A stretch of 64,000 bases of DNA, from the NCBI GenBank assembly GCA_910579775.1, contig CAJTUE010000003.1:79653-143652 (forward strand), in the 5' to 3' direction. The notes beneath the pieces are model-generated. The model saw nothing but the letters and a program-made list of their open reading frames with translations, had not been told where the DNA came from and made no database searches. Made by a program: the position numbers and the translations under genes. Origin of the DNA: an uncultured Oscillospiraceae bacterium. Lineage in GTDB: Bacteria; Bacillota; Clostridia; Oscillospirales; Oscillospiraceae. This document shows positions 3,270 through 23,117 of the stretch, one piece after another (the first letter of the stretch is position 1; every line of letters starts with the position of its first letter).

Positions 3270-3283
3270 GGCGTATCTATCCT

Positions 3284-5332: not shown

Positions 5333-5348
5333 GATACGCACCTCCTAC

Positions 5349-8300
5349 TTAATGGAGCCAGACGCGGAAGCCCGCGGATAACAGAGCGGCGTTGGGACCG
5401 CCGTCGTTCAGGTCATCGTGGTAACGCCAGCGCTCGTCGATCCAGCACTTGTCCCACTCCTCGGGCAGGGTATAGCCCAGCTCGGACTCGAAGTCAGGCA
5501 CGAACTCGTGGTCGTTGGCAGCTTCCACGATCTCATAGTAGGCCCAGTGGCCCTGCGGCACGTCAGGCCAGGTCATGTACTCGTCGGTACCGTTGCCGGT
5601 GACGTTGCTGGCAACGCCGGAGTGGACATATTCGTGGAGCTTGCGCAGCCCGTCGGCGTCCACGCCGCGGTTCAGATAGGCGTTGAAGACCTTCACGGCC
5701 TCGTCACGGCGGATGTTGTTCAGCGGCTTAAAGCTGCCGTCGGTGTAGCCGTTGACCCAGCCCTTCTTGTAGGCGGTGTAGATGCCGCCCAGAGCCCACG
5801 ACCCGGCCTCGTCGATGTCGGTGAAGTCCATCTCACCGGGGGTCATGACGCCGTCCAGACGGGCGATGACCAGGGCGAACTCCTGACGGGTGATAGGCTG
5901 GTTGGGCTTGAAGGTACCGTCGGTGTAACCCTCAAAGACGCCGTACTTGGAGCAGTAGGCAATGGCGCTCTCGGCCCAGTGTCCAGCCACGTCGGTGTAG
6001 CCGCCGGGGTTGCCGTAGTTGGAGCCTTCCTTAAAGTCGGGCAGGATGGCCCGGGCGATGATGGTGGCCACGCTGGCGCGGTCGATGTTATCGGCGGGGC
6101 CGAAGTTGCCGTTGGGATAGCCGATGACATAGTGCTCATGATAGGGCCGCTCGATGATCACCGCGTAGAAGGTCATGGTCTCACCCTTGGCCGTCACGGT
6201 CTTGGGATCCACCAGTTCGATCTTCTCACCCTTCTTCAACGTGGCGGGGTTGGTCAGAGACCAGCCGCGGAAGACGTAGCCGTCCAGAGCGGTGACCGTG
6301 GGCACCTTGCTGGGCCGGCTGCTCTCGCTCACGTCCTCAATGGTGGCGTCAGCGGTGACGCCGTGGATACCCACATGGTAGAGCACCTTGCACGGGCAGG
6401 TCTCCACCACACCGCCGCCACCGCCGGGAGAGCGGATGGTGATCTGGAACACGTAGGTGGACTGGATCGTTCTCGCGTCCTCCGGATCGTCCGCATTGGC
6501 CTTACCCAGAGCCAAGAGGGTCAGAGAATAGGTCCCGACCTTCGAGGTGTCCGCTGCGCTCAGATCGAGGACAACGCTCTGCTTGGCGCCGTCCACGGTG
6601 AGGTCAAAGCCTGTGGGCAACGTGCCCAGAGTGGCTCCGATCCCGTTTTCGGCAGAGGAAGTGATCGTATCCTGTGCCACCGTCCACTGTACGTCGTAGA
6701 CATTCGCACCATACGCGCCCAGGTTGATGGTGTAGCTGCCCAGCCCGGTAGCGCCCTGCATGACGGAAACGGTGCGGCGGTCATCCACCTTGGGGCCGGT
6801 CGTATCGGCCGGGTCGCTGCCGTCCTTCACGTCGTCGTGCATCAGGTAGGGTATCTTCTGTGTGATGTGGATAATGTGGTCGCCGTCCTCAGGATCACGC
6901 TCCACCTCCGGGTCGGGCGTGAGGTGGTCTGTAACGGTCAAGTCTGTGTTCTCGGTAATGTCCTCCTTGACGTCGGGAGTCGTGTCATCTTCTTCAGCGT
7001 AGACGTAGTTGGGATCGATGGTCACGTCCACCTTGACTTCCGTGTGCTTGCCGTCAGGCTCGCCGGGTTCAGGCTTCCAGGTGACGGTCACGTCCTGGAT
7101 GGGCACGTTGCCCTTGTCGTCCGGCGTTTCATTATCCACCGGCTCGTCGTCCTCGGTGGTTCCCTTCACCTCGGTAGGCTCGGTCTCGGGATCGGTAACG
7201 GTCACGTCTACCTTGGTGATGACCTTGGGATCGACCATAACGATCAGCTCATAAGTGGCCGTCACGTCAGGTTCGCCGCCCTCTGCGGCCAGCTCCGCAT
7301 TGGAGTAACCGGTAAGGGTAAACTTCGCGTGATGCTCGCCCACCCAAAGCTTTCCGCTCACAGGGGCCAGCTCCAGAACAAAAGTCTTTTCTCCGTCGCC
7401 AGAGGCAAACTGACCGTTGGTAAAGGTGGGATACGCACTGCCTTCCGCCAGCTTAAAGCCGGTCAGCTCATCCACCGTAAACACTGTGCCATGAATGGCC
7501 GCGTCCAGACTATGGAGCTTCACGGTGTACTGCGGTTCCACGTCCAGATAGGTGATGCGCTCGTTCTTACGGAAAGTCTCGTTGGTGTACGCCATGGCTT
7601 CGGGCGCCGTGGTAAAGGTCCCGTCGTAGCCCTCCGGCTTTTCCACCAGACTGTAGTCCGTGTCAAACTCGCCGGGCTTCAGCACATTCTCCACGTCGGC
7701 AAAATTCCGGATGATATCCGCAAACTCTGCGCCCACAGGAGGCTTGGCAATGGTGATGGTCATGTCGGTGACCGCCGCGGCGTAGTTCCACTTCTCCTCC
7801 GCCGTATCCGGCTTGTAGGTGAAGGTGAATCTATAGGTGCTGGGTTCCCCGGTACCTTGGAAGCGGGTGGGCGCCACCGTCCACGTGCCCTTATCGTAAA
7901 CGCCGCTGTCGTTGTTGGTCACATCGCCCGCATGACCGGTCGTATCGATCTGCGTGGCGGCTTGATCGTGAACGTTCTCGTAAGCAAACAGATGCTTGCG
8001 CACCGTCTCGTTGTACATGGGCACGCCGTTTTCATCCACAGGGATAAAGCTTCCGGCTGTATTCGCCGCCACATAGGCGTCGCCGCGCTTCACAGAAGTG
8101 TCCTGTGCTGCCGCGTGCGTCACAGCCAACTGGCCGGGCTCCACGTTGACCGTATAGGTCACGTCCTTGGATTTTCCGGCGTTGGTGGTAATGCGAACGG
8201 TAAGGACGACCTCGTTGTCCACTGCGCCGGCCTCGGCATAGGTCGCCTTGGTGCCGTCCTCTACCTGAACGTTGGTGTTCACAGGGGACTTGACGCTGAA

Positions 8301-11300
8301 TACGCCGGTGTCGGCATTCAGCTCCAACCAGTCGGGCAGGTCATCGGTGTTGACCACTGCATAGGTAAATGTTGTTCCGGTCGCCTCGGAATCAGTTGCG
8401 GCTACGCTGGTCTCGCTGCCGTCCTCAAATTTGGAGTTGCCATAAATCACCAACGCCTTCTTGTCAGCCGCGGTAAAGTCGCCGGGAGCAAAGGAGGCTT
8501 CTACCGTCGCTGTCAAGGATGTGGGTCTAAACACGGTCTCCGCCTTGGTTTCTCCCTCTTCCTCCAGGAATCTTCCGCTACCTGCAGTAATTTTCCAGCC
8601 GGTAAACACATAGCCGGGCGCAGGGTTCGCGTGAATCGTTACAACGCCATTCACTGTAGAGGCAGTAGAGGTTTCAGCGGCAGTTCCGTCCGACACGCCA
8701 TTCGTCACTTGGACGGTATGCCCCTGTCCCTTGTTGTCATCTGCCACAACGGCGGTCACATCCTTGTCACCTGTAGAGGTCACGTACGCTTTCGAGCGGT
8801 CATAGCCGGCATAACCCTCATTCTCAACACCCTTCTCCAAATCGTAGAAGGTGATGATATAGTCTTGGTCGCCCTCCAAGTTAGCTGTGATCCAACTGTT
8901 GGTCAGAACATAGTCGCCGTCCGCACCCATCTTCCCACCGGAAGGCTGTCCGGCAATCTTTTCAAAGGCAGTCGCATTGAGAACTCTGGGTGTGGTCAGA
9001 TCTTCATCCTCTGCCCCGGTCACTGCCAGGAAGCGAGAGCCGTCTGCCGGCTTGATCTCAATGCGGACATTGCCGCTGCCGTCATTGTGCTTATAGGTAA
9101 AGGTGCGGTCCGCTACCGGGATCGTTGCCGCGCCGATGGTACAGCCATTGGCGCCCGTCAAAACCGGCAGTAGGTCATAGTAACCGATAACCGTGTCCTG
9201 TTTCGTGACTGCGTAGGTCATAGCCAAACGGTCATCCGCATTCACTTCGATCCTGTCGTCACCCTCCGGCCCCCATCCAACAAAGTAATACTTCGCATTG
9301 GCGGGTGTTGCATTGTCGGCCTCATCTGCGGTAAAGGAAATTTCGCTGTTATCGGCCGGGATCACCAGCGTCCCGGAGTTGGACTTGGCACTGGAAGCTG
9401 TCTCGCCTGTACCGTAAGTGCCTTCGATCTGCACCGAAGTATCGGCGACCTGTGTCTTATCGCTATAACGCTGGGTTTTTAGAGAAATTGTTACCTGAGC
9501 ATAGACCGCGTCGGAGACAGCAAACTCACTGGCGTTGGCGGTACCAGCGCTGCGGTAGGCAATGAGGTAGAAGAACTTACCTTCTTCCGCCGCGCTGGGC
9601 TGGCGGGTCTTGCCCAGGGTGGTGTCCACGGTAGCTACGCCGTCCTTAGCTACCATCTTGTTGTTGGCCGTATCGATCTCAAAGTTGGCCGCGGTCAGGT
9701 CGCCCTTGTCAGACACCGCCCAGACGAAGCTGAGATCGCCGTCCTTCAGGTTGGCGTCCGTGCTGTTGGCGGCCACGGCGTCGGTGGCGGCGCTGCCGTC
9801 GTGATCCACCATCACGTGGTCAAGACCAGTCTTATTGGTGGCGTCGTTCTTGTCGTAACCCTCCAGGCTCAGCTCGCCGGTGGTGGCGTTCTTACCCGTG
9901 GTCACGCTCACGATGGGCAGTGGCTCTACCGTCAGATCGAGCACATAGTAAACGGTGGGGCCGACCGGGGTGTTGCCGTTGGTATCGGCATAGGTGGAGG
10001 GGAACTCCACCACATAGACCGCGTCGTCCTTGTTGGCCGCCGTCTTCTTCAGGGTCAGCGAGCCGCCGGCGGTGGTACCGTTCACTGCCAGGGCGGTGTT
10101 TGCGATGTCCAGACCGGAGATGGTCAGGTTATCGTCACTGTAGCTGCCGCTGGTCAACGCCAGCGCAGTGCCCAGCGTAACGCCGGTCATATTGGTAGAG
10201 GCGTTCACGCTCCCCGCCGCCAGCTTGTAGACCTTGGGCTGGCCCAGCTTCAGATCGGTGTTGCCCGGATTGCTCAGGGTCAGCGGGAAGGTTCCCGCGG
10301 TGGCGTTGAAGTAGTGGGTCTCTTCATTGTAGGCGTGCTTGTAGTTGGTGGCTACGTTGCCGCTGCCCTCAGAAGTGGCGTTGTTGTGGGGGGCCGCGCC
10401 CTCGTTGTCGGCCACCTTCAGCTTCAGGGCGGTGCCCGCCACGTAGATGGTGAACACCCGGTCGTCCGTCTGAACGGTGGGGGTCAAAGTCTCCTTGTTC
10501 CGGGTCTTGTCGGTATCGGTGTCGTCCGTGTTGACCGTTACCCGCTGAATGGTGGTGTTGACGCCGTCAAAGGAGGTGATATTATAAATACCCTTGACCA
10601 CGGTGAACTCGGCGGTATCACCCGGCTCACCACGAACGCCGTTGTTGTCCCCATCGCTCAGCACGCCGGTGGTCAGTTTTCCCGCCTCCGTAGCCGTGGT
10701 GAGGGTAAACTTGTTGTTGGACTCCGCCAGCTCCACCTTGAGCACGTGTCCGCCAGTCATGCCGGTCTCGTTCTTCACCGTGCCCACGACCTCATAGGTC
10801 TTCTGGTCGAGGCGGCCGCCGATGAAGGTCTTGTGGGTCACCGCGCCGTAGGCATACGCCCCGTTGGCAATGGCGGCGGTGGCGGACTGTCCCGTGGTCG
10901 CGGAGTCGGCCAGATTCACATCGGCGACGGCGGCGGCGGTGTTGTCATCCGACTTCTGCCGCCAAGTGAGGGTGTAGTCCTGAACCCAAGCCTTATCGGC
11001 GTTGGGCGCGCTCAGCGCCGGAGCCTTGGCGGCCACGCTCTGGCCGGAGAGAACAGGGGTGCCGTTGGGCAGAGCCGCGTGATCTGTGCCGATGGTAAAG
11101 GCGGGGGTGATGGTCACGCCGGTGAAGTCCTCCCCGGTGCCCGTCTGATACTCCTTGTTCACGAAGTTCACCGCATTGACGGTGAAGTAGGGCGCCGTGG
11201 CGGTGCGGTTGGCGTTGGAAATGCTCACATCGGCCAAGGTGACCAGGTTGGTCTTGTCATCCTTGGCGCGGCTGACCTCAACGGTATAGGTCTTGGTGGG

Positions 11301-14300
11301 CTCCAGTGCGGCCACATAGCCCTGGGCAGTGTTGTCCCAGGTGCCCTTGATCTTGTCACTGCCGTTGACAAAGTTGACGGTGTAGACAGGGTCGGTAGTG
11401 CCGCTAATGACGCCGGGATCAGCAGTCAGCGTCGTACCGTCCACCGAGATCTTCACAACGCCCTGGAAGGTGCTGGTGATGGGTGTAGAAATGGCGGCCT
11501 GGCTGGCGTTGCTGTCGTTGTTGGCATAGATGACCAGGTAGATGTCCTTGCCCTGCTGGGTCGAAGGGTCAAAGGTCTTGTTTGTCGCCCCGGCAATGGC
11601 CGTTGCGCCGGAAACGGTGGGGACACCCGCCGCCCAAGTCACGGTGGGCTGGGCAGAACCAGCGTCGGCAGCATACCACTGATACTGGTAATCCTCAGCA
11701 TTGCCGTAGGTCAAAGCGGTCTTATCGTCGGCGGCCACAGGATCGGCAGGCTCAGTCTCCGTAGCGGTAGCCGCGCCGGTGGGCGTCACCTGATACTTGT
11801 CGATGGACAGCGTGCCGTTGTCCAGCTTCTTGATTGTCACGTTGGTGAAGGGCAGGGGATCCACCACGACCTTGAGGGTGTAGGTGACCTTTGCGCTTCT
11901 GCCGCCGGTCTCCTTATTTTCAAAGGAGAAGTCAGCGGAGTATTTGTACTCACCCGCGTCCAAGCCGTCGGCAATGGTCAGGGTGATTTCTTCCTTCGCG
12001 GCGGGTTCCATCTTACCGCCGGTAAAGCTGCTGGCTGTGATGGCACTGGTGTTGCCGGCCGCCGGGGTGCTCCTCACGTTCCAGATCGCCGTGCCTTCGG
12101 TGGTGTTCTCCACCTCCATGACCACAGTCTGCCCCGTAGGGTAGTTGTAGTTCAGGTGGATCTCTTGATTGACGGTTCCGTTGACTACCGCCGCGGTATC
12201 AGCGTTGGGGATACTGCCCATGCCCGACTGGACGGTATTGCTGTCTGTTTTGTCCTTGGGCAGAGACGTCTCGGAGACCTTCATGTTCAGACCTTCACCG
12301 ATGAGGTTCACATCGTAAGTGTCCACATGCTCATCGCCTGTCACGTTCACGGTGATCTTCACACTGCCGGGATTATCCATGTCGCCGGGGGTATCCTGTC
12401 CGCCGTAGCGGTAGTTCCAACTGGCCACGCCGCTTTCCGTCTGACCGGGCACATGGGCGGTGGTGGTGTAGCCGTCTGCCTTAGGCAGACGGAAGGTGAC
12501 AGATTTACCCACGCCGATCCGATAATTCGTGGCGGAATCCAACCCGCTGTCGTCAATGCCCAGAATATTGTCAGTCTGCGTCCGCAGGGAGGTAAAGGTG
12601 TTGGTCACCGCGCCGTCTTCAAGGGCCATGGTGAGGTAGTTCACCCAGCCCGCGGTACCCGTGGCGTTGGCCTTCACGGGATAGAGGTTCAGCTTCAGCT
12701 GGGTCTTGACCTGAGCCAGCTGGCTGGAATAGGTCACGTTGGCGTGGGTCACGGCCCCGGCGTTGCCCGCCGCGGCCTTGTCGGTGGCGGTCACGCCGCC
12801 GGACCAAGTCAGGTCATAGTCCTTCGTCCACTGGGGATAGGTAAAGGTGACCTTCGTGCCCGTCTGTACCCAGGTGTTGACCACGTCCCTGCCTGCGACC
12901 CCTTCCGCGGCGGCAGAGGGACGCGGCGTAGGCGCGGTTTTGTAGAAATACTTGCTGCCATCAGGGATGTTCAGCTTGCCCTCGTAGTCATTCTGATGGA
13001 CGCTGGTATCATCCACGTCCACCTTGTAGTAAACCACGTCTTCCGTGCGGTGACCCACAGTGATGGTCTTCCCGGTGTTCTTCAAGGTGGCATCGTCCTT
13101 TACGATGCTGGCGTAGACCTTATAAGTCCAGGGCTTAGTGCTATCCGGGTTCTCCGGGTCGCTGGCCCACAAGTTCTTGGTGGACATAAAGGCGTTGTCC
13201 GCCGTGCTCCACTGGGTGGGGATCAGGTTCTCCGTATCGTTCAGGTCGATCTCGTCTCCACCCTGGGTGTTCCAAAGGTAGACGGTGTACTTCGCCCCTT
13301 CATCCGGGTCGGTGACCAGGGTAGTGTTTTCATGGATGGTGATCAGACCGTCGAAGGGCACCAGTTCCACCGGATCGCCGGCCTCCACGTCAGGGGTCAT
13401 GGCCGCGCTGGTGGCGTCCCGCTGGCCCTTGGCCACCAGGAAGAGGGCCATGCCTTTTTCTCCCGCGGTGGGCGTATAGGTCAGGTTGTTTGTGCCACGG
13501 GTGCCGGCACCCAGAGACAAGTTGCCTGTGCCGCCAGCGGTGTAGTAGGGCACGCCGGTGTTCTTGTTCAACTTCACCGTGGCATCCCAGGGAGCCACGT
13601 ACCACTCATAGACAATGTCGGCGTTGGTGGCCATGTTGTAATCGCCATCCTCCATGGTCACCAGAGCATTGTAATGGGGCTTGGTGGCCGGATTTTCGCC
13701 GTCCTCCGCGACCCAGGTCTCTTTGACATCATAGCGGATCACATTGCCGTCGCTATCCTTGATCTTGTTGGTCGCCACCTTGCTCACCGTGACGGGGTCG
13801 ATGGTGATGTTCAGGTTGTAGACGCCGTCGGGGCCCTTGGTGGTCACGCCGTCGCGGCCATCCACCGTGGAGAAGTTGAAGTGGTAGGCCACGTCGTCAT
13901 CGTTGTTCAGGTCGGCGGGGATGGTGACCACAAAGCTCTTGCTGGCGCCCACCGCCAAGTCAAAGGTGCGCTCCAGGCCGCCGATGGTCACGCCGTTGCC
14001 ATCGGTCAGAACACCGCCCGTCAGGGTCTGGGTGCCGTCATACACGGTGGTGTTGGTGCCCTTGGTGATCCCCAAGGTAACAGTCAAGGGGGTGTTGCCC
14101 TGGTTGGTGATGACAACGGTGCGGGTGTACTGGTTGTAATCCGCGAACTTTTCCTTGTCGCTGTGGTTCACAGTAGCCGTGGCAGAGCCGCCGGTGGCGA
14201 ACTGCTTGTGGGCCTCGTTATCCGTGTCCTTCACCTCGATGGAAAGGGTAGTAGACACGATGTGGATGGCAAACTTGCCATTTTCCGCCTTGGTCACCTG

Positions 14301-17300
14301 CTCCAAGGCCAAAGGCGCAACCTGATCGGCCGCCGCCTTACTGGGGGCGCTGTAGCCCACCAGGGTGGTATTGGCGCCCATCGTAGCGGAAATGACATAG
14401 TTTTCGTTGATCTCACCGGTCACCGCAGACTTGGGCACGGTAAATTCCACCACATTGATACCCGGCGCACCGCTGTAAAGCACCTTTCCGGTAAATTCAT
14501 GCCCGTTGGCGGTCAGCTTCGCCGTCGCCACGCTACCGCTGCCCTTGATGTCGCCTCTGATCAGGTAAGTGTTCTGCACCAGCTCGCCGCCGATGTTGGT
14601 CTTGGCGGTCACTGCGCCGTTGGCGTAACCCGTGGCGTTGGCGGTGGTGGAGTTCTGCTTGGTAGTGGTGTTCGCTACAGGGTCATTCCCCGTGCTCTTC
14701 TTCCATGTAAGGGTGTAGTCCTGGTTCCAGGTGGAGGACTTGGCGGTGACCGACGTGCCGGTGTGGACGCCGTTGCCGTCTGCCACAGTGGAACCGTTGG
14801 ACGTAGTCACGCTGTTGATGGCGGGGGTGTTGGTCGCGTCAAAGGTCTCGCCCACATCGCGGTTGTCCTTGTCCTGCGTATGGCTCTGGCTAAAGTCAAC
14901 GCGGTTCACCGAGAAGTAATTGACGTTCTTCCCGGTGTTGTTGAGCGGTGTGACCGTCCCGGCCTCGGTGGCGTGGAGGTAATAGGTGCTGCCCTCCGCG
15001 TCGCTGACCCAGATCACGTAATTGGTCGCGCCCTTGAGGGGGGAACCGCTGGTCGAGTAAATACCCGTGGCCGCGTTAAAGGTATCCGCCTTCTTGATGC
15101 CCTTGGCGTTCAGCGCGGCGTCGCCGGCAAAGTCAGCCTGGGTCACAGCCGTACCGCTGGGCACCAGGAACACCTTGTAGTTGTCCGCAGTCACGTGACT
15201 GCCGTCCTTGTTGACGGTGATCTCCGCGTCATAGTCCACGGGGATGGCGTTGGTGATGACCGCGCCCTCGGCGGTCTCGCTTGCCGCATCCACCTCAACC
15301 ACGGCGTAGATGTACTTGCCTCGCATAGCGCTGGTCACAGTCACCGCGCCTGTAGCGATCGAGTTTGTCCCTTCGTTCCACGCGCCGACGCCGGTCGCCC
15401 CGGTGGTGCCGATCAACGTAGCGCCGCTGACTGCCATTGCCGCCGTCTTTGCCGCCGCGGCGGGATCAGTCTGGGCATTAAAATTCGTCTGAGTGGGCTT
15501 GCTGTTCGCATAGTACCAAGTAAAGATCAGCTCGTCATGCTTGATGTCAGGCGCCGCGGCAGTGTGATCCTTATAGATCACACCGTCACGGGCAGTAGCA
15601 GTGTTGGGATTGGCGGTATCAGAAGCCTTGTCCTTCACCTGCACGTTCGTCTCGGTGAGCTTGTGCTTGTTGGAAGTCACGATAAAGTTGGTACTTTGGG
15701 CCGTTTTCTCCACATTGTTCGGGTGATTCACAGGCCCGAGCACATACGTAAGGTTCAGGGTGTACGTTCCGTTCGGCACATCTTCACGCAGATGCTCCGC
15801 CGTAATGGTGTAATACTCACCGTCGCCGCCGCTCACAACGTAGTCCGCAGCGTCCAGGACCTCCGTAAAGGTGGCTGTACCAGCCGCATTCAGGACCGTC
15901 ACCTTTGTGGGCGCTTGCCCGTTGTTCTTCGTCCAAGTAGAGCGCCGCTCTGCCGCGCCCGTAGGAGAGGTCGCGGTCCCTGTGCCCTTGTCGAACACCC
16001 ATCCCGCAGTGAGCGTACCCATCCGCCAGGCGTTCAGCTCCAAAACGCTGTCCTTCTTGGGTGTGTAGATGCCGTTCTGGATCACATATCCCACCTTGCC
16101 GTTTGCAGGCTTGGTCGCAGCTGCGTGGCTGCTGTTGTCAAATTCGCCGTGATCCGTGCTCGGGACCGTCCACTCGCTCAGCACACGGGTAGCGCTTTCA
16201 ACGCCGCCGCCGTTGGCAGCGCCGTTGATGGTAACGGTGTCGCCGCTGTCTACCATAATGGTGTTCGTTGCCGCCCAATTTGCCTCGCCCGTCTCCTTCA
16301 GGTGGACGGCAAACTCACTGCTGGGGATCCCGGCCGCCAGCTGCACCGTCACCTTGAACTGCTGCACAAAGCTGGCAGTAAGGGTGATTTTGTCGGTGGG
16401 CGTAATACCAGTATTAGCCTTCAACGTGGCTTCCGCCGGAAGGGTATACGTTGTGGTCGCATTCTTGGCGTTGCCCATGCTGCCGCCGTTGGCCCCCGGC
16501 GCGGTCACCGCCCAGTTGTCAAAGCGGTAATGGGTCCCGTCCGCCTCGTTAAAGGCCGTGGCGACCACGTTCCCAATGCTGTAAGCGTCTACCTTTGCCA
16601 GCACGATCTTGCTGGCGGTCGTACCAGCCGTACCGCCGGCAAAGTTCACCTTGTTCTGCTTCGGGGCGGTTCCCGCGGGATCGGCCACCAGATCAATGGT
16701 GTAGTAGTTGACCTCGGCCTTTCGCTTGGCCTGTTCATTAACGTCCGTGCTCTCCGCTTCCGCGGCGGTGAAGTTCAGATTTTTCTCGGAATCCGCCGTG
16801 GTCCCGGTCGTTACACCGTCTACATAGACGTCGTAATTACCGGGCAGCACTTTTGCTGTATAGAGTCCGTCTTCGGTGGCGCTTTCCGTCAGGGTATATT
16901 TCACCGCACCGCCCTGACGCAGCTCCACCTTTCGTCCTGCGTAAGCTTCGTTGTCCAGGTTGACCCGGATCTCCACCGGGTAAACGGCGGCTTCCGTCTT
17001 GGCAACCAGGGAAGCGTTGTCCGCGGTGGGGAAGAAATACACCGTAGTGGCCGCCGTCTTCGTACCGGAGGTCAACTGCGTCCCCGCCTGCTTATCAGCC
17101 GTGGTCCACAGCGTACCATTGGAGAAAGTCCAGTTATTCAGCGTATTGCCCGTGTTGTGGGTAAACTCCGCCTTCACGTAGTCCCCGCTGTCCACCGTAG
17201 CGCTGGTGGCAGGAGTCCCAATGCTGGAGCCGGTGGAGCCCTTTTCGGTAAAGATAGCCGTACCGCCGGTGGTAGGATCAACGCTGACCGTGGCGGTGTA

Positions 17301-20300
17301 CTGCCGCACATAATGCGCAGTCAGGGTCACGTCGGCGGTCATGCTGCCGATGGTCCAGGTGGTGGCGTTGCCCGTTCCCCCCTCCGGGGTGGTCACGTCG
17401 CCCGCACTGGCGGTCCAGAAGGAGTTGTTCGTTCCGTCATTGGCGACGGAACGCTTGCGGTAGCCCGTTGCTACTGTGGCGGCGGCGTTTACCGTCGGGG
17501 CAGCAGTGGTCACCGCCGCGCCGTTGGGTACGATCGCCAAGTTGCCCGTACCCGCGGCGTTCAGGCCCACGTTGCTGGTACCGCCCGCGGCGGGATCACG
17601 CGCGGTGGTCACCTTAAACACCACAACAGGCACTTTTCCGCCTGCGTTGGCGGAGGTGATCTGCTTGTTGCCCGCTCCGACCTTAAAGCCGTTCACCCAG
17701 ATATCATAGGTCTTGGCCGGGTCCAGACCGGACACACTGTAAGTGCCGTCGGCAGTCTGCTTTGTACAATTGATCGTGGGAGCGGCGCCCACCTCGGCCA
17801 GCTGCACCGTGGTCACGTTCGTCAGCGTGCCCGTGGTGGTCAGATGCCGCGTCTCAATAGTGGTGGCGAAGGTATAGGTGGGTGTGACCACCAAGTCGGT
17901 AGCGGCATTGTAACCCGTCTGCAGCGTCACCGTGCCGCCCGAAATGGATACATTCGCGAGCGCCGGGTCGTTGGTCTGTTCCCAGTTCGCCAGGGTGTAC
18001 CCGGTCGAGTGGGTCTCCGCGGCGGTCACGTTGCCCACGGGAGTCACCACACGGGCGCTCGCCGCAGAGCCGGCCCCGGCGGCCCGGACCGTAGCAGTAA
18101 GGCAGCCGGCGGGCTTCGTCTCCGCGACCTTCACGCCGTAGAAGTTCTTGGTCGCGACGTCATCTATCTTGGCCTGCTCGTAGTAAACGCCGCCGTCAAC
18201 GGTGGTAATGCGCCAATAGGGCGCCGTCACGCTGGCCGAAGATACGCCGTTGGCCTCCCAGCGGTCGTTCTTGCGCTCCAAGGTCACGCCACTCACCGAA
18301 GCCGTCCCGGTGGCGGTGTTCACCAGCTGGATCTCTTTGATGTTGGTGTCGCTGGTTCCCTTCGTGGCCCAGTTGCTGGTGTTGACGTTGACCACCAGAT
18401 AGGTGTTGTACTTATCCTTGATAAAGTTTGCCGTATAGGTGACCGTGCTGGTCACGCTGGCCAGCGTCTTGGGGTCGGAGGTATCGTGAGTGGTGGTGTT
18501 GTTCAATTGCCAGTAGCTAAACTTCCAGTTCTCCTGAGGATTCATCGACGTCCACTTCACCGCCGTGCCGTTGATCACCACAATGCTCTGGGAGGTGACC
18601 GGCGTGCCGTTGGCGTAATCCGTCTGGGCGGAACCGCTCAATCCGTCGGTGGTGACCTCCACCTTGGCGTCGCCGTGTCCGGCGGTCGCCGCTGTGACCG
18701 TCCAGTATCTGACCGTGATCTGGGGCACGTTAGCCTGATTCACCGTCACCTTGGCGGTGTGCGTTCCCACATACCCGGTCTTGCTCACCGACAGATCATA
18801 CTTGTTGGCGTCCGTGCCATTATACTCCACATTGCTGAAGGTATAAATGCCGTTTGCAACGCTGGTGGGAGTCTTCGTAGACAAAGTCACTGTGGCGTCG
18901 TTGACCGGGTTGCCGTCCAGCAGCACCTGTACCGTCACCGTGCCCAGCTTCTTCTTGAAGGTCGCCGTCAGCTCAGTCTTCTGGTTCATAGTGACGCTGG
19001 CGCTGGCGGAGGTAGGCGCGGTAATGCCGCCCACATCCACCGTCCATGCGTCCCACTCATAGTCGGTGTTCTTGGGGTCGGCAATGAAGGACACAGAAGT
19101 GCCCTTCTTATAGACGGTCGGTCCGACGGTCTGCGCCGTCGCGGAGGACCCAATGCCCACCTGCGCGGCGGTGGCCTTCGTCTGATCCGCCGTCAGCTTC
19201 AACGTGTAAAGCTCCAGCTTCGCCGGGGCGGCGGTGCTGTCCTGGGTGCCCTGGTCCACCGTAAAGGCGCCGTCCGGCGTGACAACGCTCCACTTCAAAT
19301 TGCTCTCCGTCGCCGAAATGACCCCCGCGTACTTCCACAGATTGACCGTCGTATCATAGGTCGCGTCATGGGTCCCCAGCTTCACGCTGGTGATCTTCCC
19401 GCCCAGGGCGGTCACGCCGCTGTCATCGAGGATCAGGTTCAAATAGGTATCGTACTTCGGCTTGCTGAACTCGGCGATCAACTCCGTCTTCTGGGTCAGC
19501 GTGATCTGGTTCGCCGCGTTCGTCGCAGTAGTAGGCAGAGTGCCCTCACCAAGCTTCCACCTGGTGAAGGAATAGTTGCTGCCGCTGGGCGCGGCGTTGA
19601 TATACACCGTCGTACCCGTCAGATAGGTGCCCGTCTGGTTATCCTGATTCGCCGTGGGCGGGTTGGCGGTAGCGCTCTGGGCGACCTTCGCGCCGCTGTC
19701 CACCGTCTGTTCAGCCGTCACCTTCAGGGTGTAGAAGGGGATATTGACCGTCTGATCCGAGGCGATCGCCGTAATGGTCCGGCTGAACGTCCCCAGGGCG
19801 ACGGTGTAGTTGTTCCCCTGCTCCACAGTAAACTCTTTGGTCGCGTCGGAGGTGGTCGTCCAGTCGGTCTGTCCGGTTACGGTGACCGTCTGGCTCCCGC
19901 CGGGGTGCTGGGTCGTGCCGTTCACCTGGAGGTTGACCGTAATCGTGGCGGTCAGCTTGGCGAAGGACACCGTGTACGTGGTGGTCTCGGTAATGGCCTT
20001 CAGCGTCGTGCTGTTGGTGGTGCTGGCAGCCGTCTGATCCACGCCCGCTGTCTTTGTCCAGGTCGCGGCGTTGGGGTTATAGTAGGTCTGCGCGCTGGCC
20101 GACAGGGTCACCCCCGTCGTGCCGTCCAGCACCACCAACGAGTTGTTGGAGGTGTTGACCTTGGGCGCGGTAGCGCCCGTTCCGGCGTTCAGCGTCACGG
20201 TCCAATAACGCACATCCTGGCTGCCGCCGGTATCTCCCACTGTAATATCGATCCCCGTGTTTGTACCGTTGACATAGATGCGATAACTACCCGGCGTAAC

Positions 20301-23117
20301 GTCGGCAGAATACACGCCCGTCGCGTCCTTGTTCAAGTCCGCGGCTTTCGTCGTTCCCGTGTAGAGGGCCACGCCGGAGCCCACCGTAGCGTCGCTCTTC
20401 GCATTGTCCAAGTAGATGTTGACTACAGCCGGAACGACCCCGGCGCCGAAGGTGGCGACGAGGGGCTTGGAGTTCTCCGTGTCTCCGGCGTTGGAGGCGA
20501 CGGTGACCGCCGAGACCTCCCACGTGCCGTCTGTCAGGGATGGGGTCTGGTCAGTCCCGTTATAGCTTACCTTCTTTGGCTGGTCGTTGCCCCCCGCATT
20601 CAGCGCGGGGGTAAGCTCCGTCCCCACCGGGTAATAGAGCGTGCGGGGGTTGGTCGTGTCCTTATTGACGGGCACATAGCCGTCCTCGGGGTCAACGTCG
20701 GTGGCGGCCGGATTCTCGTCGTGAGGGATCTTCAGGGTGCTCTCCGCATGGGTCGCCCCCTCCACCTTGGGGGTCACAGCGCCCAACTCCACCAGGAAAT
20801 GATAGGTGCCTTTGCCCAGGAGCATACTATACTCGTTCTCTGTCAGGGCGGAGGTATTGATCGTATACGCCGTATGGCCGTTGATGTTCAGGGTATACGT
20901 TCCGCCCGGCAGCGTGACCGACCAGGGGTCGGCCAGTCCGCCCGCCGCCTGGGCCGAGAGGGTGTACGTGCCGCTCTTGGAATAGCCGTCTTCGGCGTCG
21001 CCGCTGTCGTCCTTCGTCGCCGAGGCCAGGAGGGTCGTCCCCCGGTAAAGCTCGACCTTAAACACATGGTCCACGTTCTTGCTGCGGTCGGTGGGCGTGG
21101 CGTTATTGATATCCGTGCCCTTAAATGTGGTAAAGAACTTTACGTTGACCAGATCATAATGCGCCGTCACTGTGGTGTCCGCGGTGGGGTTAAAATAGCC
21201 GTTTTCCGCCTGCGTCACCCCGGCCATAGAGCCCGTCAAGCCGCTTCCCATGCTTGTACCCGACGTAACGGCCGCGCCGCTCCAGTGGTCAAACGCGTTC
21301 AGCTTGTCGCCGGCGTAGACGTTTACCGTGGTTCCCGTCGGATAATAGGAATACTGCACACGGCTGGACTTTACCCGGTCCCAGGTATAGTCGCCCAAAA
21401 CCTGCGGGTTGCCGGAGCCGCCGGAGCCGTCTTCCGCCACCGTAACCGCGTACGCGGGCACGTCGGTGAAGCCCTTCTTTACACCCTCTTGTGTGTTGAT
21501 CCCGTCGACAAACACCTTGCTGCCCAGCTCCACCGTGCGGCCGCCCGACAGTCCGTAATATCCGCCTTCCTCCGCGACCCACTCCAGAATATAATTTGCC
21601 GTGGTTCCAATCTTCAGCTGATGGAAGTCCTCTCCGCTGTCAGCCATGTTGTTCGTCTTCTTCATGCCCTTATATTCGTCTTGGGTCAAAGGGGTCGTTG
21701 TGCCGTCCGCGTTCACCTTCACCAGACGTACCTTCGGCTCCACATCCAGGCTTCCGGCCCAGTGAATGCCGCCGTTTGCCGACGCGCTGACTGGACGCCC
21801 GGCATATTCTCCCGATGCGCACGACGCCTCCGCCGTATAGCTGGACCATATGTCGGAGGGATAGTCATTGCCATCCCAAGTGCCTGCGCTATAAAAAGCC
21901 TCTATCACGCCGATGTCCGACATGGACGAGCCCCAGCCCAGGTTCTCGTCTCCAAACAGGGCCTCATCCACCGGCGTGACCAGCGGAAGATATACTGCAT
22001 TGTCCTCTCCCGGTTGAAGAGTCCCGATGGTATAGATCCCCCATGCATTTGTACCATCTGCAAACCCGTAGGCGTGACCCAGGGTTATGCCGCAATCAGC
22101 GTAATCCGCGAAGCCAATATCCGTTTCGCCGTTGTCAGCGCCCACCGTAATATTGCCCCACTGCGCGCCGGGGTCGTCGGTCACGATATTGCCGCGCTTC
22201 AACTGCACCGTCACGTTGGTCATTGCGGCCTCGCTCCGGTTGGTGACCTTTACATAGGCATATGCGCTTCCCCCCTCCTGGGGAAGCGTAAGGCCCTCGC
22301 TCGTATCCTTCACGTCCACCAACCGTTCTACAAGCTCCACCTTGAGGGGCTGGGTGGTGACTTTGATGCGCATGACGGCATGGCTGAAGCCGGAGGAACC
22401 GCCAATGAAGACAGTAAAAGGCAGACCATCCGTAGCAGGATCAATGGTCGTGGTACTGTCCGGCTCATAGAAGGTCTTGCCCAACGCATATTCGCTCAAC
22501 GCACTCATGTTAAAAGCTACCGAGCTATGCCGACTCTGTGCAGTATCTACAGCTGCCCCGTTAGCTCTAATTTGCCAGTTCCAGTCTACACTTACAGTGC
22601 CACCAAAGGTTGTATTCTTTGACTTTAGCCAGACATAGGGCATTCCCATAAAGTCTGCTAACTGTGTATCAGCATCACTTGCATTGTTGTTAAAATATCC
22701 GGTCCAATCGCCTGCCCCTAGCCCTTCGTAACCTGTCGTAGCTATAGAGTCGCCACCATTCGTAGTGAACCGAGGTACAATGAGAACTGCTACGGGGTCC
22801 TGACCTGTACCCGTACCAGTCGCAATTGTACCGCTCAAGTTAGTCACGTTCGTATTCGCCAGCGTAATGCTGGTAATGGCCGCGCTCAGATCCGCGGTAG
22901 GACCGTCGGGATCGACGGGGTCCACAGGCTTTTCCCCGGTGACGTCGTCGTCATGCCTCCCCTGGGTGTCCGCCACGGGGTCGTCGGGGCTGAGGACAGG
23001 CTGCTCCCCCACCACGTCGTCGGTGATGCGGGCGGCAAAAGCGGTGGTGGGGAGGGTCCCCACCACCATCAGCACCGCCAGAGCCATGGCCAGCCATCTC
23101 TTCAGAAGTCTCTTCAT
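5349..23117 (-). CDS. giant (5,922 aa) secreted, SLH-anchored repeat protein; putative cell-surface fibre/adhesin
   Basis: An uninterrupted 17,769-nt ORF with AGGAGG 8 nt upstream of the ATG at 23115-23117. Signal peptide MKRLLKRWLAMALAVLMVVGTLPTTAFA. The body is rich in T/A/G/V/N/D and looks like beta-type repeats, including many InlB-B-like units (..Y.F..W..). It ends with an acidic spacer, a GGGGG linker, one Flg_new repeat (GYVFRGWSL..TFYAVI) and SLH repeats (YTDVAGHWAESAIAYC..TRQEF etc.). Confidence 0.9.
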   Translation of the reverse strand: MKRLLKRWLAMALAVLMVVGTLPTTAFAARITDDVVGEQPVLSPDDPVADTQGRHDDDVTGEKPVDPVDPDGPTADLSAAITSITLANTNVTNLSGTIATGTGTGQDPVAVLIVPRFTTNGGDSIATTGYEGLGAGDWTGYFNNNASDADTQLADFMGMPYVWLKSKNTTFGGTVSVDWNWQIRANGAAVDTAQSRHSSVAFNMSALSEYALGKTFYEPDSTTTIDPATDGLPFTVFIGGSSGFSHAVMRIKVTTQPLKVELVERLVDVKDTSEGLTLPQEGGSAYAYVKVTNRSEAAMTNVTVQLKRGNIVTDDPGAQWGNITVGADNGETDIGFADYADCGITLGHAYGFADGTNAWGIYTIGTLQPGEDNAVYLPLVTPVDEALFGDENLGWGSSMSDIGVIEAFYSAGTWDGNDYPSDIWSSYTAEASCASGEYAGRPVSASANGGIHWAGSLDVEPKVRLVKVNADGTTTPLTQDEYKGMKKTNNMADSGEDFHQLKIGTTANYILEWVAEEGGYYGLSGGRTVELGSKVFVDGINTQEGVKKGFTDVPAYAVTVAEDGSGGSGNPQVLGDYTWDRVKSSRVQYSYYPTGTTVNVYAGDKLNAFDHWSGAAVTSGTSMGSGLTGSMAGVTQAENGYFNPTADTTVTAHYDLVNVKFFTTFKGTDINNATPTDRSKNVDHVFKVELYRGTTLLASATKDDSGDAEDGYSKSGTYTLSAQAAGGLADPWSVTLPGGTYTLNINGHTAYTINTSALTENEYSMLLGKGTYHFLVELGAVTPKVEGATHAESTLKIPHDENPAATDVDPEDGYVPVNKDTTNPRTLYYPVGTELTPALNAGGNDQPKKVSYNGTDQTPSLTDGTWEVSAVTVASNAGDTENSKPLVATFGAGVVPAVVNIYLDNAKSDATVGSGVALYTGTTKAADLNKDATGVYSADVTPGSYRIYVNGTNTGIDITVGDTGGSQDVRYWTVTLNAGTGATAPKVNTSNNSLVVLDGTTGVTLSASAQTYYNPNAATWTKTAGVDQTAASTTNSTTLKAITETTTYTVSFAKLTATITVNLQVNGTTQHPGGSQTVTVTGQTDWTTTSDATKEFTVEQGNNYTVALGTFSRTITAIASDQTVNIPFYTLKVTAEQTVDSGAKVAQSATANPPTANQDNQTGTYLTGTTVYINAAPSGSNYSFTRWKLGEGTLPTTATNAANQITLTQKTELIAEFSKPKYDTYLNLILDDSGVTALGGKITSVKLGTHDATYDTTVNLWKYAGVISATESNLKWSVVTPDGAFTVDQGTQDSTAAPAKLELYTLKLTADQTKATAAQVGIGSSATAQTVGPTVYKKGTSVSFIADPKNTDYEWDAWTVDVGGITAPTSASASVTMNQKTELTATFKKKLGTVTVQVLLDGNPVNDATVTLSTKTPTSVANGIYTFSNVEYNGTDANKYDLSVSKTGYVGTHTAKVTVNQANVPQITVRYWTVTAATAGHGDAKVEVTTDGLSGSAQTDYANGTPVTSQSIVVINGTAVKWTSMNPQENWKFSYWQLNNTTTHDTSDPKTLASVTSTVTYTANFIKDKYNTYLVVNVNTSNWATKGTSDTNIKEIQLVNTATGTASVSGVTLERKNDRWEANGVSSASVTAPYWRITTVDGGVYYEQAKIDDVATKNFYGVKVAETKPAGCLTATVRAAGAGSAASARVVTPVGNVTAAETHSTGYTLANWEQTNDPALANVSISGGTVTLQTGYNAATDLVVTPTYTFATTIETRHLTTTGTLTNVTTVQLAEVGAAPTINCTKQTADGTYSVSGLDPAKTYDIWVNGFKVGAGNKQITSANAGGKVPVVVFKVTTARDPAAGGTSNVGLNAAGTGNLAIVPNGAAVTTAAPTVNAAATVATGYRKRSVANDGTNNSFWTASAGDVTTPEGGTGNATTWTIGSMTADVTLTAHYVRQYTATVSVDPTTGGTAIFTEKGSTGSSIGTPATSATVDSGDYVKAEFTHNTGNTLNNWTFSNGTLWTTADKQAGTQLTSGTKTAATTVYFFPTADNASLVAKTEAAVYPVEIRVNLDNEAYAGRKVELRQGGAVKYTLTESATEDGLYTAKVLPGNYDVYVDGVTTGTTADSEKNLNFTAAEAESTDVNEQAKRKAEVNYYTIDLVADPAGTAPKQNKVNFAGGTAGTTASKIVLAKVDAYSIGNVVATAFNEADGTHYRFDNWAVTAPGANGGSMGNAKNATTTYTLPAEATLKANTGITPTDKITLTASFVQQFKVTVQLAAGIPSSEFAVHLKETGEANWAATNTIMVDSGDTVTINGAANGGGVESATRVLSEWTVPSTDHGEFDNSSHAAATKPANGKVGYVIQNGIYTPKKDSVLELNAWRMGTLTAGWVFDKGTGTATSPTGAAERRSTWTKNNGQAPTKVTVLNAAGTATFTEVLDAADYVVSGGDGEYYTITAEHLREDVPNGTYTLNLTYVLGPVNHPNNVEKTAQSTNFIVTSNKHKLTETNVQVKDKASDTANPNTATARDGVIYKDHTAAAPDIKHDELIFTWYYANSKPTQTNFNAQTDPAAAAKTAAMAVSGATLIGTTGATGVGAWNEGTNSIATGAVTVTSAMRGKYIYAVVEVDAASETAEGAVITNAIPVDYDAEITVNKDGSHVTADNYKVFLVPSGTAVTQADFAGDAALNAKGIKKADTFNAATGIYSTSGSPLKGATNYVIWVSDAEGSTYYLHATEAGTVTPLNNTGKNVNYFSVNRVDFSQSHTQDKDNRDVGETFDATNTPAINSVTTSNGSTVADGNGVHTGTSVTAKSSTWNQDYTLTWKKSTGNDPVANTTTKQNSTTANATGYANGAVTAKTNIGGELVQNTYLIRGDIKGSGSVATAKLTANGHEFTGKVLYSGAPGINVVEFTVPKSAVTGEINENYVISATMGANTTLVGYSAPSKAAADQVAPLALEQVTKAENGKFAIHIVSTTLSIEVKDTDNEAHKQFATGGSATATVNHSDKEKFADYNQYTRTVVITNQGNTPLTVTLGITKGTNTTVYDGTQTLTGGVLTDGNGVTIGGLERTFDLAVGASKSFVVTIPADLNNDDDVAYHFNFSTVDGRDGVTTKGPDGVYNLNITIDPVTVSKVATNKIKDSDGNVIRYDVKETWVAEDGENPATKPHYNALVTMEDGDYNMATNADIVYEWYVAPWDATVKLNKNTGVPYYTAGGTGNLSLGAGTRGTNNLTYTPTAGEKGMALFLVAKGQRDATSAAMTPDVEAGDPVELVPFDGLITIHENTTLVTDPDEGAKYTVYLWNTQGGDEIDLNDTENLIPTQWSTADNAFMSTKNLWASDPENPDSTKPWTYKVYASIVKDDATLKNTGKTITVGHRTEDVVYYKVDVDDTSVHQNDYEGKLNIPDGSKYFYKTAPTPRPSAAAEGVAGRDVVNTWVQTGTKVTFTYPQWTKDYDLTWSGGVTATDKAAAGNAGAVTHANVTYSSQLAQVKTQLKLNLYPVKANATGTAGWVNYLTMALEDGAVTNTFTSLRTQTDNILGIDDSGLDSATNYRIGVGKSVTFRLPKADGYTTTAHVPGQTESGVASWNYRYGGQDTPGDMDNPGSVKITVNVTGDEHVDTYDVNLIGEGLNMKVSETSLPKDKTDSNTVQSGMGSIPNADTAAVVNGTVNQEIHLNYNYPTGQTVVMEVENTTEGTAIWNVRSTPAAGNTSAITASSFTGGKMEPAAKEEITLTIADGLDAGEYKYSADFSFENKETGGRSAKVTYTLKVVVDPLPFTNVTIKKLDNGTLSIDKYQVTPTGAATATETEPADPVAADDKTALTYGNAEDYQYQWYAADAGSAQPTVTWAAGVPTVSGATAIAGATNKTFDPSTQQGKDIYLVIYANNDSNASQAAISTPITSTFQGVVKISVDGTTLTADPGVISGTTDPVYTVNFVNGSDKIKGTWDNTAQGYVAALEPTKTYTVEVSRAKDDKTNLVTLADVSISNANRTATAPYFTVNAVNFVNKEYQTGTGEDFTGVTITPAFTIGTDHAALPNGTPVLSGQSVAAKAPALSAPNADKAWVQDYTLTWRQKSDDNTAAAVADVNLADSATTGQSATAAIANGAYAYGAVTHKTFIGGRLDQKTYEVVGTVKNETGMTGGHVLKVELAESNNKFTLTTATEAGKLTTGVLSDGDNNGVRGEPGDTAEFTVVKGIYNITSFDGVNTTIQRVTVNTDDTDTDKTRNKETLTPTVQTDDRVFTIYVAGTALKLKVADNEGAAPHNNATSEGSGNVATNYKHAYNEETHYFNATAGTFPLTLSNPGNTDLKLGQPKVYKLAAGSVNASTNMTGVTLGTALALTSGSYSDDNLTISGLDIANTALAVNGTTAGGSLTLKKTAANKDDAVYVVEFPSTYADTNGNTPVGPTVYYVLDLTVEPLPIVSVTTGKNATTGELSLEGYDKNDATNKTGLDHVMVDHDGSAATDAVAANSTDANLKDGDLSFVWAVSDKGDLTAANFEIDTANNKMVAKDGVATVDTTLGKTRQPSAAEEGKFFYLIAYRSAGTANASEFAVSDAVYAQVTISLKTQRYSDKTQVADTSVQIEGTYGTGETASSAKSNSGTLVIPADNSEISFTADEADNATPANAKYYFVGWGPEGDDRIEVNADDRLAMTYAVTKQDTVIGYYDLLPVLTGANGCTIGAATIPVADRTFTYKHNDGSGNVRIEIKPADGSRFLAVTGAEDEDLTTPRVLNATAFEKIAGQPSGGKMGADGDYVLTNSWITANLEGDQDYIITFYDLEKGVENEGYAGYDRSKAYVTSTGDKDVTAVVADDNKGQGHTVQVTNGVSDGTAAETSTASTVNGVVTIHANPAPGYVFTGWKITAGSGRFLEEEGETKAETVFRPTSLTATVEASFAPGDFTAADKKALVIYGNSKFEDGSETSVAATDSEATGTTFTYAVVNTDDLPDWLELNADTGVFSVKSPVNTNVQVEDGTKATYAEAGAVDNEVVLTVRITTNAGKSKDVTYTVNVEPGQLAVTHAAAQDTSVKRGDAYVAANTAGSFIPVDENGVPMYNETVRKHLFAYENVHDQAATQIDTTGHAGDVTNNDSGVYDKGTWTVAPTRFQGTGEPSTYRFTFTYKPDTAEEKWNYAAAVTDMTITIAKPPVGAEFADIIRNFADVENVLKPGEFDTDYSLVEKPEGYDGTFTTAPEAMAYTNETFRKNERITYLDVEPQYTVKLHSLDAAIHGTVFTVDELTGFKLAEGSAYPTFTNGQFASGDGEKTFVLELAPVSGKLWVGEHHAKFTLTGYSNAELAAEGGEPDVTATYELIVMVDPKVITKVDVTVTDPETEPTEVKGTTEDDEPVDNETPDDKGNVPIQDVTVTWKPEPGEPDGKHTEVKVDVTIDPNYVYAEEDDTTPDVKEDITENTDLTVTDHLTPDPEVERDPEDGDHIIHITQKIPYLMHDDVKDGSDPADTTGPKVDDRRTVSVMQGATGLGSYTINLGAYGANVYDVQWTVAQDTITSSAENGIGATLGTLPTGFDLTVDGAKQSVVLDLSAADTSKVGTYSLTLLALGKANADDPEDARTIQSTYVFQITIRSPGGGGGVVETCPCKVLYHVGIHGVTADATIEDVSESSRPSKVPTVTALDGYVFRGWSLTNPATLKKGEKIELVDPKTVTAKGETMTFYAVIIERPYHEHYVIGYPNGNFGPADNIDRASVATIIARAILPDFKEGSNYGNPGGYTDVAGHWAESAIAYCSKYGVFEGYTDGTFKPNQPITRQEFALVIARLDGVMTPGEMDFTDIDEAGSWALGGIYTAYKKGWVNGYTDGSFKPLNNIRRDEAVKVFNAYLNRGVDADGLRKLHEYVHSGVASNVTGNGTDEYMTWPDVPQGHWAYYEIVEAANDHEFVPDFESELGYTLPEEWDKCWIDERWRYHDDLNDGGPNAALLSAGFRVWLH
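9440..15700 (-). repeat. diverged ~640-aa (~1.9 kb) coding super-repeat, 3 full copies plus the start of a 4th, inside the giant ORF
   Basis: Motif ..(F/E/Q/V)W(Y/A).. occurs at W2534, W3172, W3814 and W4466 (codons 15516-18, 13602-04, 11676-78, 9720-22). Motif DY(T/D)LTW occurs at D2800, D3433 and D4047 (14718-20, 12819-21, 10977-79). All are in the ORF frame. Confidence 0.75.

Follow-up and report, generated by a model that had tools for sequence, protein, structure and literature searches.

We describe here a gene of 5,922 codons on the minus strand (positions 5,349 to 23,117) of a 64,000-nucleotide stretch of DNA, the window, from an uncultured Oscillospiraceae bacterium (GenBank assembly GCA_910579775.1, contig CAJTUE010000003.1, positions 79,653 to 143,652). 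The gene is real and intact. Its product, hereafter the giant, carries an export signal and a C-terminal SLH anchor, and the gene forms a conserved pair with an upstream gene for a 2,081-aa secreted protein, hereafter the partner. The giant probably does not act alone. With a probability of roughly 0.6, we regard it as an SLH-anchored, adhesin-like surface fibre that works together with the partner. An earlier note on this DNA, made from the letters alone, had proposed one very large secreted SLH-anchored protein with diverged modules and a unique, distal N-terminus. Our analysis supports this proposal and adds the operon context that the note had missed, namely the partner gene, which overlaps the giant gene as ATGA, and a downstream gene encoding a 376-aa copy of the anchor.

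The list of open reading frames (ORFs), the translation and the sequence itself verify a single uninterrupted frame equipped with a ribosome-binding site and a signal peptide. An AGGAGG motif lies 6 nt 5' of the ATG (preceding sequence ...CTAGGAGGACAATGAA|ATG). The N-terminus of the protein, MKRLLKRWLAMALAVLMVVGTLPTTAFA|A, reads as a Sec-type signal peptide with a basic start, a hydrophobic stretch and an AxA layout, and a hydrophobic-run scan found no other long hydrophobic run in the giant. The giant has a mass of 625 kDa (622 kDa for the mature protein) and an isoelectric point of 4.6. It is acidic, T, A, G and V make up 44% of its residues, and the mature protein contains nine Cys. The G+C content of the ORF (0.600, against 0.609 for the window) stays between 0.55 and 0.65 all along; of the AT-rich patch reported for the N-terminal region, only a shallow dip remained, with values of 0.557-0.57 over the first ~370 codons against a mean of ~0.60. 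The giant comprises the following features.

5349-23117, minus strand: giant ORF, 5,922 codons, ATG start, one terminal stop (ORF list, translation)
23031-23117, minus strand: signal peptide, aa 1-29 (MKRLLKRWLAMALAVLMVVGTLPTTAFAA), from the sequence and the hydrophobic-run scan, kept in homologues
22878-23030, minus strand: acidic, Pro-rich lead of the mature protein, aa 30-80, unusually well conserved between species
20448-22877, minus strand: unique N-terminal "head", aa 81-890, without Pfam or PDB match, related to its own orthologues only
15729-20447, minus strand: diverged two-domain units, aa 891-2463, Flg_new_2/InlB-B-like units alternating with other beta-rich units
9438-15728, minus strand: whole tract of the ~645-aa super-repeat (self-BLAST of chunks, hidden Markov model (HMM) tiling, alignment)
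13797-15728, minus strand: super-repeat copy R1, aa 2464-3107
11859-13796, minus strand: super-repeat copy R2, aa 3108-3753
9927-11858, minus strand: super-repeat copy R3, aa 3754-4397
9438-9926, minus strand: partial copy R4, aa 4398-~4560, the first ~150 aa of a fourth copy
7248-9437, minus strand: unique C-terminal segments, aa 4561-5290, with near-threshold Flg_new_2 (~4801-4874) and He_PIG (~4900-4992)
6411-7247, minus strand: tether region, aa 5291-5569, consisting of a D/E/P/T spacer (5291-5410), a beta-rich part (5411-5564) and GGGGG (5565-5569)
5352-6410, minus strand: anchor module, aa 5570-5922, with a sub-threshold Flg_new-like unit, three SLH domains and a conserved C-terminal extension of ~105 aa

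The anchor is the best-recognized part of the protein chain. Pfam assigned three SLH stretches (PF00395) to aa ~5656-5815 with 124.8 bits against a cutoff of 20.8, and a phmmer search of PDB sequences related this region to the solved SLH domain of Bacillus anthracis Sap (6bt4_A, E = 9.4e-6; 3pyw_A, E = 1.3e-5). The C-terminal SLH anchor anticipated from the bare sequence is thereby confirmed. The only NCBIfam model to match the giant was one for NEAT-domain leucine-rich repeat proteins, and the match was confined to the SLH portion of that model. The giant has no sortase (LPXTG-type) motif near its C-terminus, its only regular-expression matches being at aa 22, 1194 and 4697, and the partner has no such motif at all. 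The acidic, Pro-rich lead, the D/E/P/T-rich spacer (53-60% of these residues over aa ~5291-5410) and the GGGGG linker were all found where they had been predicted. A Flg_new repeat described ahead of the SLH domains is present as a unit, but its score of 16.4 bits lies below the cutoff of 27.

Internal repeats were mapped by chunked self-BLAST and iterative HMM tiling. Across aa 2700-4400, the giant matched itself at offsets of ~615-650 and ~1,240-1,290 aa. The corresponding copies R1 to R3 align end to end with pairwise identities of 20-32% and are followed by the partial fourth copy, which agrees with the ~640-aa super-repeat in about 3.2 copies that had been noticed before. N-terminal of this tract, a two-domain period of ~175 aa was detected within aa ~1120-1660, and aa 880-991 matched aa 2031-2158. 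Two Flg_new_2 domains in the same region exceeded the Pfam cutoff of 23.6 (32.8 bits for aa ~1327-1390, 30.9 bits for aa ~1161-1220). Weaker matches lie at aa ~1502-1567 and, just under the threshold, at aa ~4801-4874; the latter is followed by a Pfam match to the Ig-like He_PIG domain (aa ~4900-4992). An iterated HMM seeded with the three clear Flg_new-like units of the giant retrieved no further units; they are too diverged to be counted by sequence. Of the ~1,500 aa of alternating units proposed earlier, the stretch with the ~175-aa period is thus substantiated, while the remainder is without sequence support in the giant itself; up to 11 Flg_new stretches in homologous giants support it indirectly.

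An ORF of this length might also be an assembly artefact or a decaying pseudogene, and the one point in favour of such a reading is that the sequences come exclusively from short-read metagenome assemblies or metagenome-assembled genomes (MAGs). The exact sequences of both flanking proteins were looked up in public assemblies. Both proteins are present on many independent mouse-gut metagenome contigs and MAGs, and the gene callers of these independent assemblies gave the giant as 5,922 aa or, in two assemblies, as 5,930 aa. Nine fetched loci were identical to the window across ~10 kb of shared giant gene. Two further loci differed at 28 of 9,984 nt, with a ratio of nonsynonymous to synonymous substitution rates (dN/dS) of 0.34. 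Over the last 3,328 codons, the two 5,930-aa strains showed 20 residue changes and a single in-frame deletion of 1 aa (dN/dS 0.29). In the stretches compared, the strains differ only by substitutions and this single in-frame indel, and the giant is under purifying selection (dN/dS 0.29-0.34). Collinear orthologues at 81% and 34-44% identity are likewise open. The longest direct DNA repeats inside the ORF measure 24-28 nt and are imperfect, as expected from the earlier remark that long identical blocks are missing. With no direct repeat above 28 nt, nothing in the ORF could collapse or expand during assembly. Because the gene is intact across independent assemblies, we consider an artefact or pseudogene effectively excluded.

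The genomic context was examined for ten relatives of the partner with 25-79% identity which, together with the window itself, make up 11 loci. In all 11 loci, a giant gene lies immediately downstream of the partner gene on the same strand. The called giants comprise 5,922 (window), 5,957, 5,994, 6,791, 6,941, 7,013, 7,135, 7,141 and 8,294 aa. In the two remaining loci, the giant has at least 4,236 codons and runs off the fetched locus, or is represented by an 897-aa N-terminal fragment on a short contig. Partner and giant are therefore a conserved gene pair. Several of the giants downstream of partner relatives carry SLH and Flg_new matches, and homologous giants show 4-11 Flg_new hits together with weak CarboxypepD_reg-like and CBM_X2 hits. 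The giants homologous to that of the window are 81% identical in a close relative, 34-44% identical and collinear in another species, and 25-31% identical over 500-1,700 aa in the rest. They have the signal peptide and the acidic lead in common with it. Since several loci retain the same neighbours (prfB, DUF896, ylmH and an ABC transporter), the cassette appears to be vertically inherited. The earlier statement that genes of this size are rare in bacteria is valid in a relative sense only, given homologues of up to 8,294 aa and genes for 10,000-30,000 aa in mammalian-gut Clostridia.

Two distant cassettes, L017 (1-9665) and L020 (1-9668), contain a third giant gene upstream of the partner gene, encoding 4,909 and 4,921 aa, respectively. 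The L017 product matches Dockerin_1 near the threshold (21.6 bits, cutoff 22.9) and CBM_4_9 weakly, and beyond these matches it continues into a long acidic Pro/Glu tail. A dockerin-type DLDGDG motif occurs in both.

The partner gene and the element ahead of it are located as follows.

23114-29359, minus strand: partner gene, 2,081-aa secreted protein, GTG start, signal peptide
29492-29520, minus strand: putative promoter-like site TTGCAA-17 nt-TATAAT (consensus scan)

The TGA of the partner gene overlaps the ATG of the giant gene as ATGA. The promoter-like site precedes the partner gene by ~130 nt and is situated in a divergent intergenic region shared with rpsO-pnp. Rfam returned no family in the whole window (gathering thresholds) or in the operon leader (E ≤ 1), and no c-di-GMP riboswitch. 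The N-terminal ~950 aa of the partner are conserved and beta-rich, and its C-terminal half consists of variable helical repeats with NYWW and QYxLL motifs and closes with a short tail of hydrophobic and basic residues. Searches of Pfam, NCBIfam and PDB sequences gave no match for the partner, and neither did Pfam scans of pieces or a comparison of the family profile with the PDB; NCBI labels it "hypothetical protein [Oscillospiraceae bacterium]". A database search retrieved at least 81 cluster representatives, all of 1,600-2,200 aa, unnamed and without a Pfam hit. The N-terminal ~950 aa are common to all of these representatives, and the helical repeats differ.

Two observations concern the C-terminal half of the partner. 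The gene contains a tandem duplication (window 23460-24197, minus strand) with a period of 438 nt, 300 nt of which are 93% identical. The period corresponds to 146 aa, and the 2,081-aa partner is longer by exactly this amount than the 1,935-aa forms of strains with 99% identity; the copy number of the helical module thus appears to vary between strains. Moreover, many members of the partner family have E-x-P-L-G-[DE]-E close to the C-terminus, with 25-35 hydrophobic and basic residues after it, which in the window reads ...PSVTVTMAGPIIAFLTRRTMK (23117-23260).

Comparison of the window with the 34-44% orthologue revealed an uneven pattern of conservation. The partner is 60% identical between the two species and thus exceeds the giant. 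Within the giant, the super-repeat is the best-conserved stretch between species, with up to 75% identity, and together with the first ~110 residues it exceeds the rest of the head (22-38%). The lead (aa 30-110, window 22788-23030) is far better conserved than the ~800 aa that follow it. Length differences between species reside mainly in the region of alternating units (aa 891-2463). Such a pattern, with a super-repeat more conserved than the tip, would also suit a structural component of the envelope, either S-layer-associated or sheath-forming, that covers or spaces the wall rather than projecting from it as an adhesin. This account could further draw on the SLH anchor, as found in true S-layer proteins, on the two further SLH proteins encoded directly downstream, and on the chromosomal, syntenic and vertically inherited position of the locus beside prfB and rpsO-pnp in several species. 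Known lattice-forming S-layer proteins, however, are far smaller than 625 kDa, and a length that varies from 5,922 to 8,294 aa through gain and loss of units, combined with fast divergence, is more typical of stalks than of lattice subunits. We therefore consider an envelope component rather unlikely and retain the projecting fibre as the favoured model.

To a large extent, the giant is without known relatives. Approximately 5,000 aa of it match no Pfam family, NCBIfam model or PDB sequence, and the first 4,990 aa gave no PDB sequence match even at E ≤ 1. When aa 1-900 were compared with 5.8 billion protein clusters in a word-indexed search, two proteins emerged, both of them orthologue fragments, with identities of 91% and 51%. 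When aa 75-890 were run against 1.84 billion representatives in a full HMMER scan, just those two fragments were returned. Super-repeat copy R2 had no match in a protein-database search, and a profile search of PDB sequences with alignments of the super-repeat sub-domains yielded matches at chance level only. The AlphaFold model of the N-terminal 900 aa, computed from an alignment of three sequences, was unusable, with a mean predicted local distance difference test score (pLDDT) of 31. The full-length giant itself was absent from the search output, and very long proteins may be missing from the libraries; the apparent lack of relatives is thus partly a property of the databases. Judged by these comparisons, the giant belongs to an undescribed, sequence-orphan family. 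Its composition, the few Pfam anchors and the Flg_new-rich homologues suggest that the ~5,000 aa could be made up of beta-sandwich or Ig-like modules.

The partner proved more amenable to structure prediction. AlphaFold modelled its aa 2-1000 from a 76-sequence alignment with a mean pLDDT of 80.9 and a predicted template modelling (TM) score of 0.53. A Foldseek search of the PDB with this model gave nothing at E ≤ 1e-3. Among the top 31 PDB matches, however, approximately 25 were cohesins, mostly of type II and from several organisms, all of them weak (best E 1.4e-2, probability ≤ 0.91, target-normalised TM score 0.35-0.40, root-mean-square deviation 7-13 Å). A search of viral structures with the same model returned nothing meaningful, and no relationship between a giant sub-domain and the partner N-terminal domain emerged when their profiles were compared. 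We take the possible resemblance to cohesins, which comes from a predicted model, as a lead and not as a finding.

If followed, this lead would point to a multi-protein surface assembly of the cellulosome type but without cellulases, with the giant as anchoring scaffold and the partner docking to it, or to further giants, through a cohesin-like module. Classical cellulosomes carry type II cohesins on SLH-anchored proteins, and cohesins predominate among the Foldseek matches. The strict pairing of partner and giant and the ~4,900-aa third giants, with their DLDGDG motif in both cassettes and the near-threshold Dockerin_1 match in L017, are compatible with such an arrangement. Against it stand the insignificant E values, low TM scores and large deviations of the structural matches, and a profile of the partner N-terminal domain found no cohesin among the PDB sequences. 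In addition, the giant, the partner and the 376-aa protein contain neither a Pfam Cohesin or Dockerin domain nor a DxDxDG-type calcium-binding motif, and there are no glycoside hydrolase genes in the neighbourhood. We judge this assembly to be unlikely. Also unlikely is a broader version, in which giant scaffold and cohesin-like partner would build an undescribed multi-component surface organelle of gut Oscillospiraceae that reuses the cellulosome principle beyond cellulose degradation. In this version, the partner would dock perhaps via the conserved lead of the giant or via its own C-terminal tail, and some lineages would add a dockerin-bearing third giant. The acidic lead of the giant (aa 30-110) or the C-terminal tail of the partner could serve as a docking or sorting signal.

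In the preferred model of an adhesin-like fibre on a mouse-gut Oscillospiraceae bacterium, the 625-kDa giant would be exported through the Sec pathway and held at the cell wall non-covalently by its C-terminal three-SLH module, by analogy with SLH proteins such as Sap and SpaA, which sit on pyruvylated secondary cell-wall polymer. The anchor and the string of modules would be tethered flexibly to each other by the acidic spacer and the Gly5 linker. Approximately 5,500 residues of diverged, mostly beta-rich modules (Flg_new-type units, the 3.2-fold super-repeat, He_PIG) would form a long, extended stalk with the unique N-terminal ~900 residues at its far end, away from the cell, and binding may be exerted by this N-terminal region or by the conserved super-repeat. 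The giant would be co-transcribed with the partner, and in the species of the window its translation would be coupled to that of the partner, which presumably assembles with the fibre on the cell surface. From the next gene, the free-standing copy of the anchor module would be made.

Several results weigh against this model. Pfam, NCBIfam and PDB comparisons revealed no known adhesive or ligand-binding domain in aa 1-890 of the giant, and over ~5,000 aa neither Pfam nor the PDB returned a match that would back the proposed beta-sandwich fold of most modules. Furthermore, identity between species is higher in the super-repeat (up to 75%) than in the head (22-51%); a simple model of an inert stalk with a functional tip predicts the reverse. 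Finally, no csaB-like pyruvyltransferase was found among the window ORFs scanned. The absence of a known domain from the head leaves room for a new one.

SasG, Ebh and Cna are examples of fibrillar adhesins. As a class, the fibrillar adhesins of Gram-positive bacteria have a C-terminal anchor, a stalk and an adhesive distal N-terminus, and SLH is listed as one of the anchor types (Monzon et al., 2021, PMC8286594). The giant shares with them the very long single chain, the signal peptide, the tandem diverged stalk and the C-terminal anchor. It differs in that no adhesive domain and hardly any stalk domain could be recognised, with ~5,000 aa free of Pfam hits, and in being anchored by SLH rather than LPXTG. 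The pairing of its gene with that of a ~2,000-aa partner in every locus examined is not a feature of the class either. Because a recognisable adhesive domain was looked for and not found, we propose that the giant works like a fibrillar adhesin but stop short of counting it among the verified members of the class.

Giant repeat-rich surface proteins of gut Clostridia are already known, so that size alone is not surprising. Mammalian-gut Clostridia possess genes for proteins of 10,000-30,000 aa with Listeria-Bacteroides (Flg_new) repeats (West-Roberts et al., bioRxiv 10.1101/2023.11.21.568195). As described there, those proteins resemble the giant in their origin from gut Clostridia/Oscillospiraceae, their extracellular repeat character and their Flg_new repeats. 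They comprise 10,000-30,000 aa or more, or are pure RCC1 arrays, whereas the giant has 5,922 aa, an SLH anchor and mostly unrecognised modules. No mention of a conserved partner gene was found in the passages of that preprint which a term search brought up.

With the scaffoldins SdbA, OlpB and ScaB, the giant has in common that it is a large modular Clostridia surface protein with a C-terminal SLH triplet. The weak type II cohesin matches of the partner model and the dockerin-like module in the third giant of distant cassettes point in the same direction. Unlike scaffoldin systems, the proteins of the window are devoid of Pfam cohesins and dockerins, no glycoside hydrolases are encoded nearby, and the cohesin resemblance stays below significance. 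The three tandem SLH domains, with the TRAE-like motifs TRQE, RRDE and DRAS, are reminiscent of B. anthracis Sap/EA1 and BSL proteins and of Paenibacillus alvei SpaA. Sap has an N-terminal SLH module and forms a lattice of ~800-aa subunits; the SLH module of the giant, in contrast, is located at the C-terminus of what would be a 5,922-aa fibre. The new elements are the orphan giant family, its pairing with an unannotated family of ~2,000-aa partners, and the adjoining copy of the anchor module.

Oscillospiraceae are abundant commensals of the gut, most of them uncultured, whose contacts with mucus, food particles and other cells are poorly understood. In the window, ~25 kb of core chromosome are spent on two secreted proteins that no database recognises. 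The pairing of both genes and the confident model of the partner provide a handle on how such fibres might be assembled and used, and two new protein families are defined for annotation.

Directly downstream of the giant gene lies the following gene.

4202-5332, minus strand: gene for the 376-aa protein, a free-standing copy of the anchor module of the giant, 62% identical over 346 aa

Its ribosome-binding site follows directly after the TAA of the giant gene. The protein comprises the Flg_new-like unit, the SLH triplet and the C-terminal extension, and a lipobox-like AAAG|C closes its signal peptide. The Cys of the giant that corresponds to this lipobox Cys is located just after the GGGGG linker (ETCPC). 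In the index of the assembly collection, the exact 376-aa protein occurs in 797 blocks, which indicates that the locus is common in mouse-gut metagenomes. Competition for wall sites and a spacer function are conceivable roles of the 376-aa protein.

The existence of this separate copy implies that the anchor is able to function as a unit of its own. It also bears on the possibility that the giant serves as a polyprotein or precursor, from which cleavage after export would yield several surface-bound or released proteins acting independently. The flexible, low-complexity D/E/P/T spacer and the Gly5 linker just ahead of the anchor would offer candidate cleavage sites. Such linkers are, however, common in surface proteins that stay uncleaved, and Pfam and NCBIfam revealed neither a protease domain nor a recognisable processing motif. 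We regard cleavage into several products as quite improbable and favour the giant as a single surface fibre.

Three further genes follow on the same strand (window 234-4126, minus strand). They encode a soluble histidine kinase of ~277-280 aa (HisKA and HATPase_c), for which Pfam indicated no sensor domain and among whose scanned neighbouring genes no response regulator was present, an SLH-bearing 5'-nucleotidase/metallophosphoesterase of 732 aa, and a tyrosine phosphatase of 214 aa. Downstream of the giant gene, no terminator-like hairpin was detected before 197-230; these three genes may therefore be co-transcribed with it.

In a scan of GTDB species representatives with the window peptide patterns WLAMALAV and DPVADTQG, the only match was the uncultured Clostridia MAG CAMNQX010000002.1, which belongs to a different species. 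The species of the window thus either has no GTDB representative in the scan or has a representative without this locus. Elsewhere, the window consists of ordinary core chromosome, with rpsO-pnp, prfB, RNase Y, cinA, htpG and others. It includes, at 54076-55506 on the plus strand, a gene for a membrane O-acyltransferase of the MBOAT family, which may modify a wall polymer.

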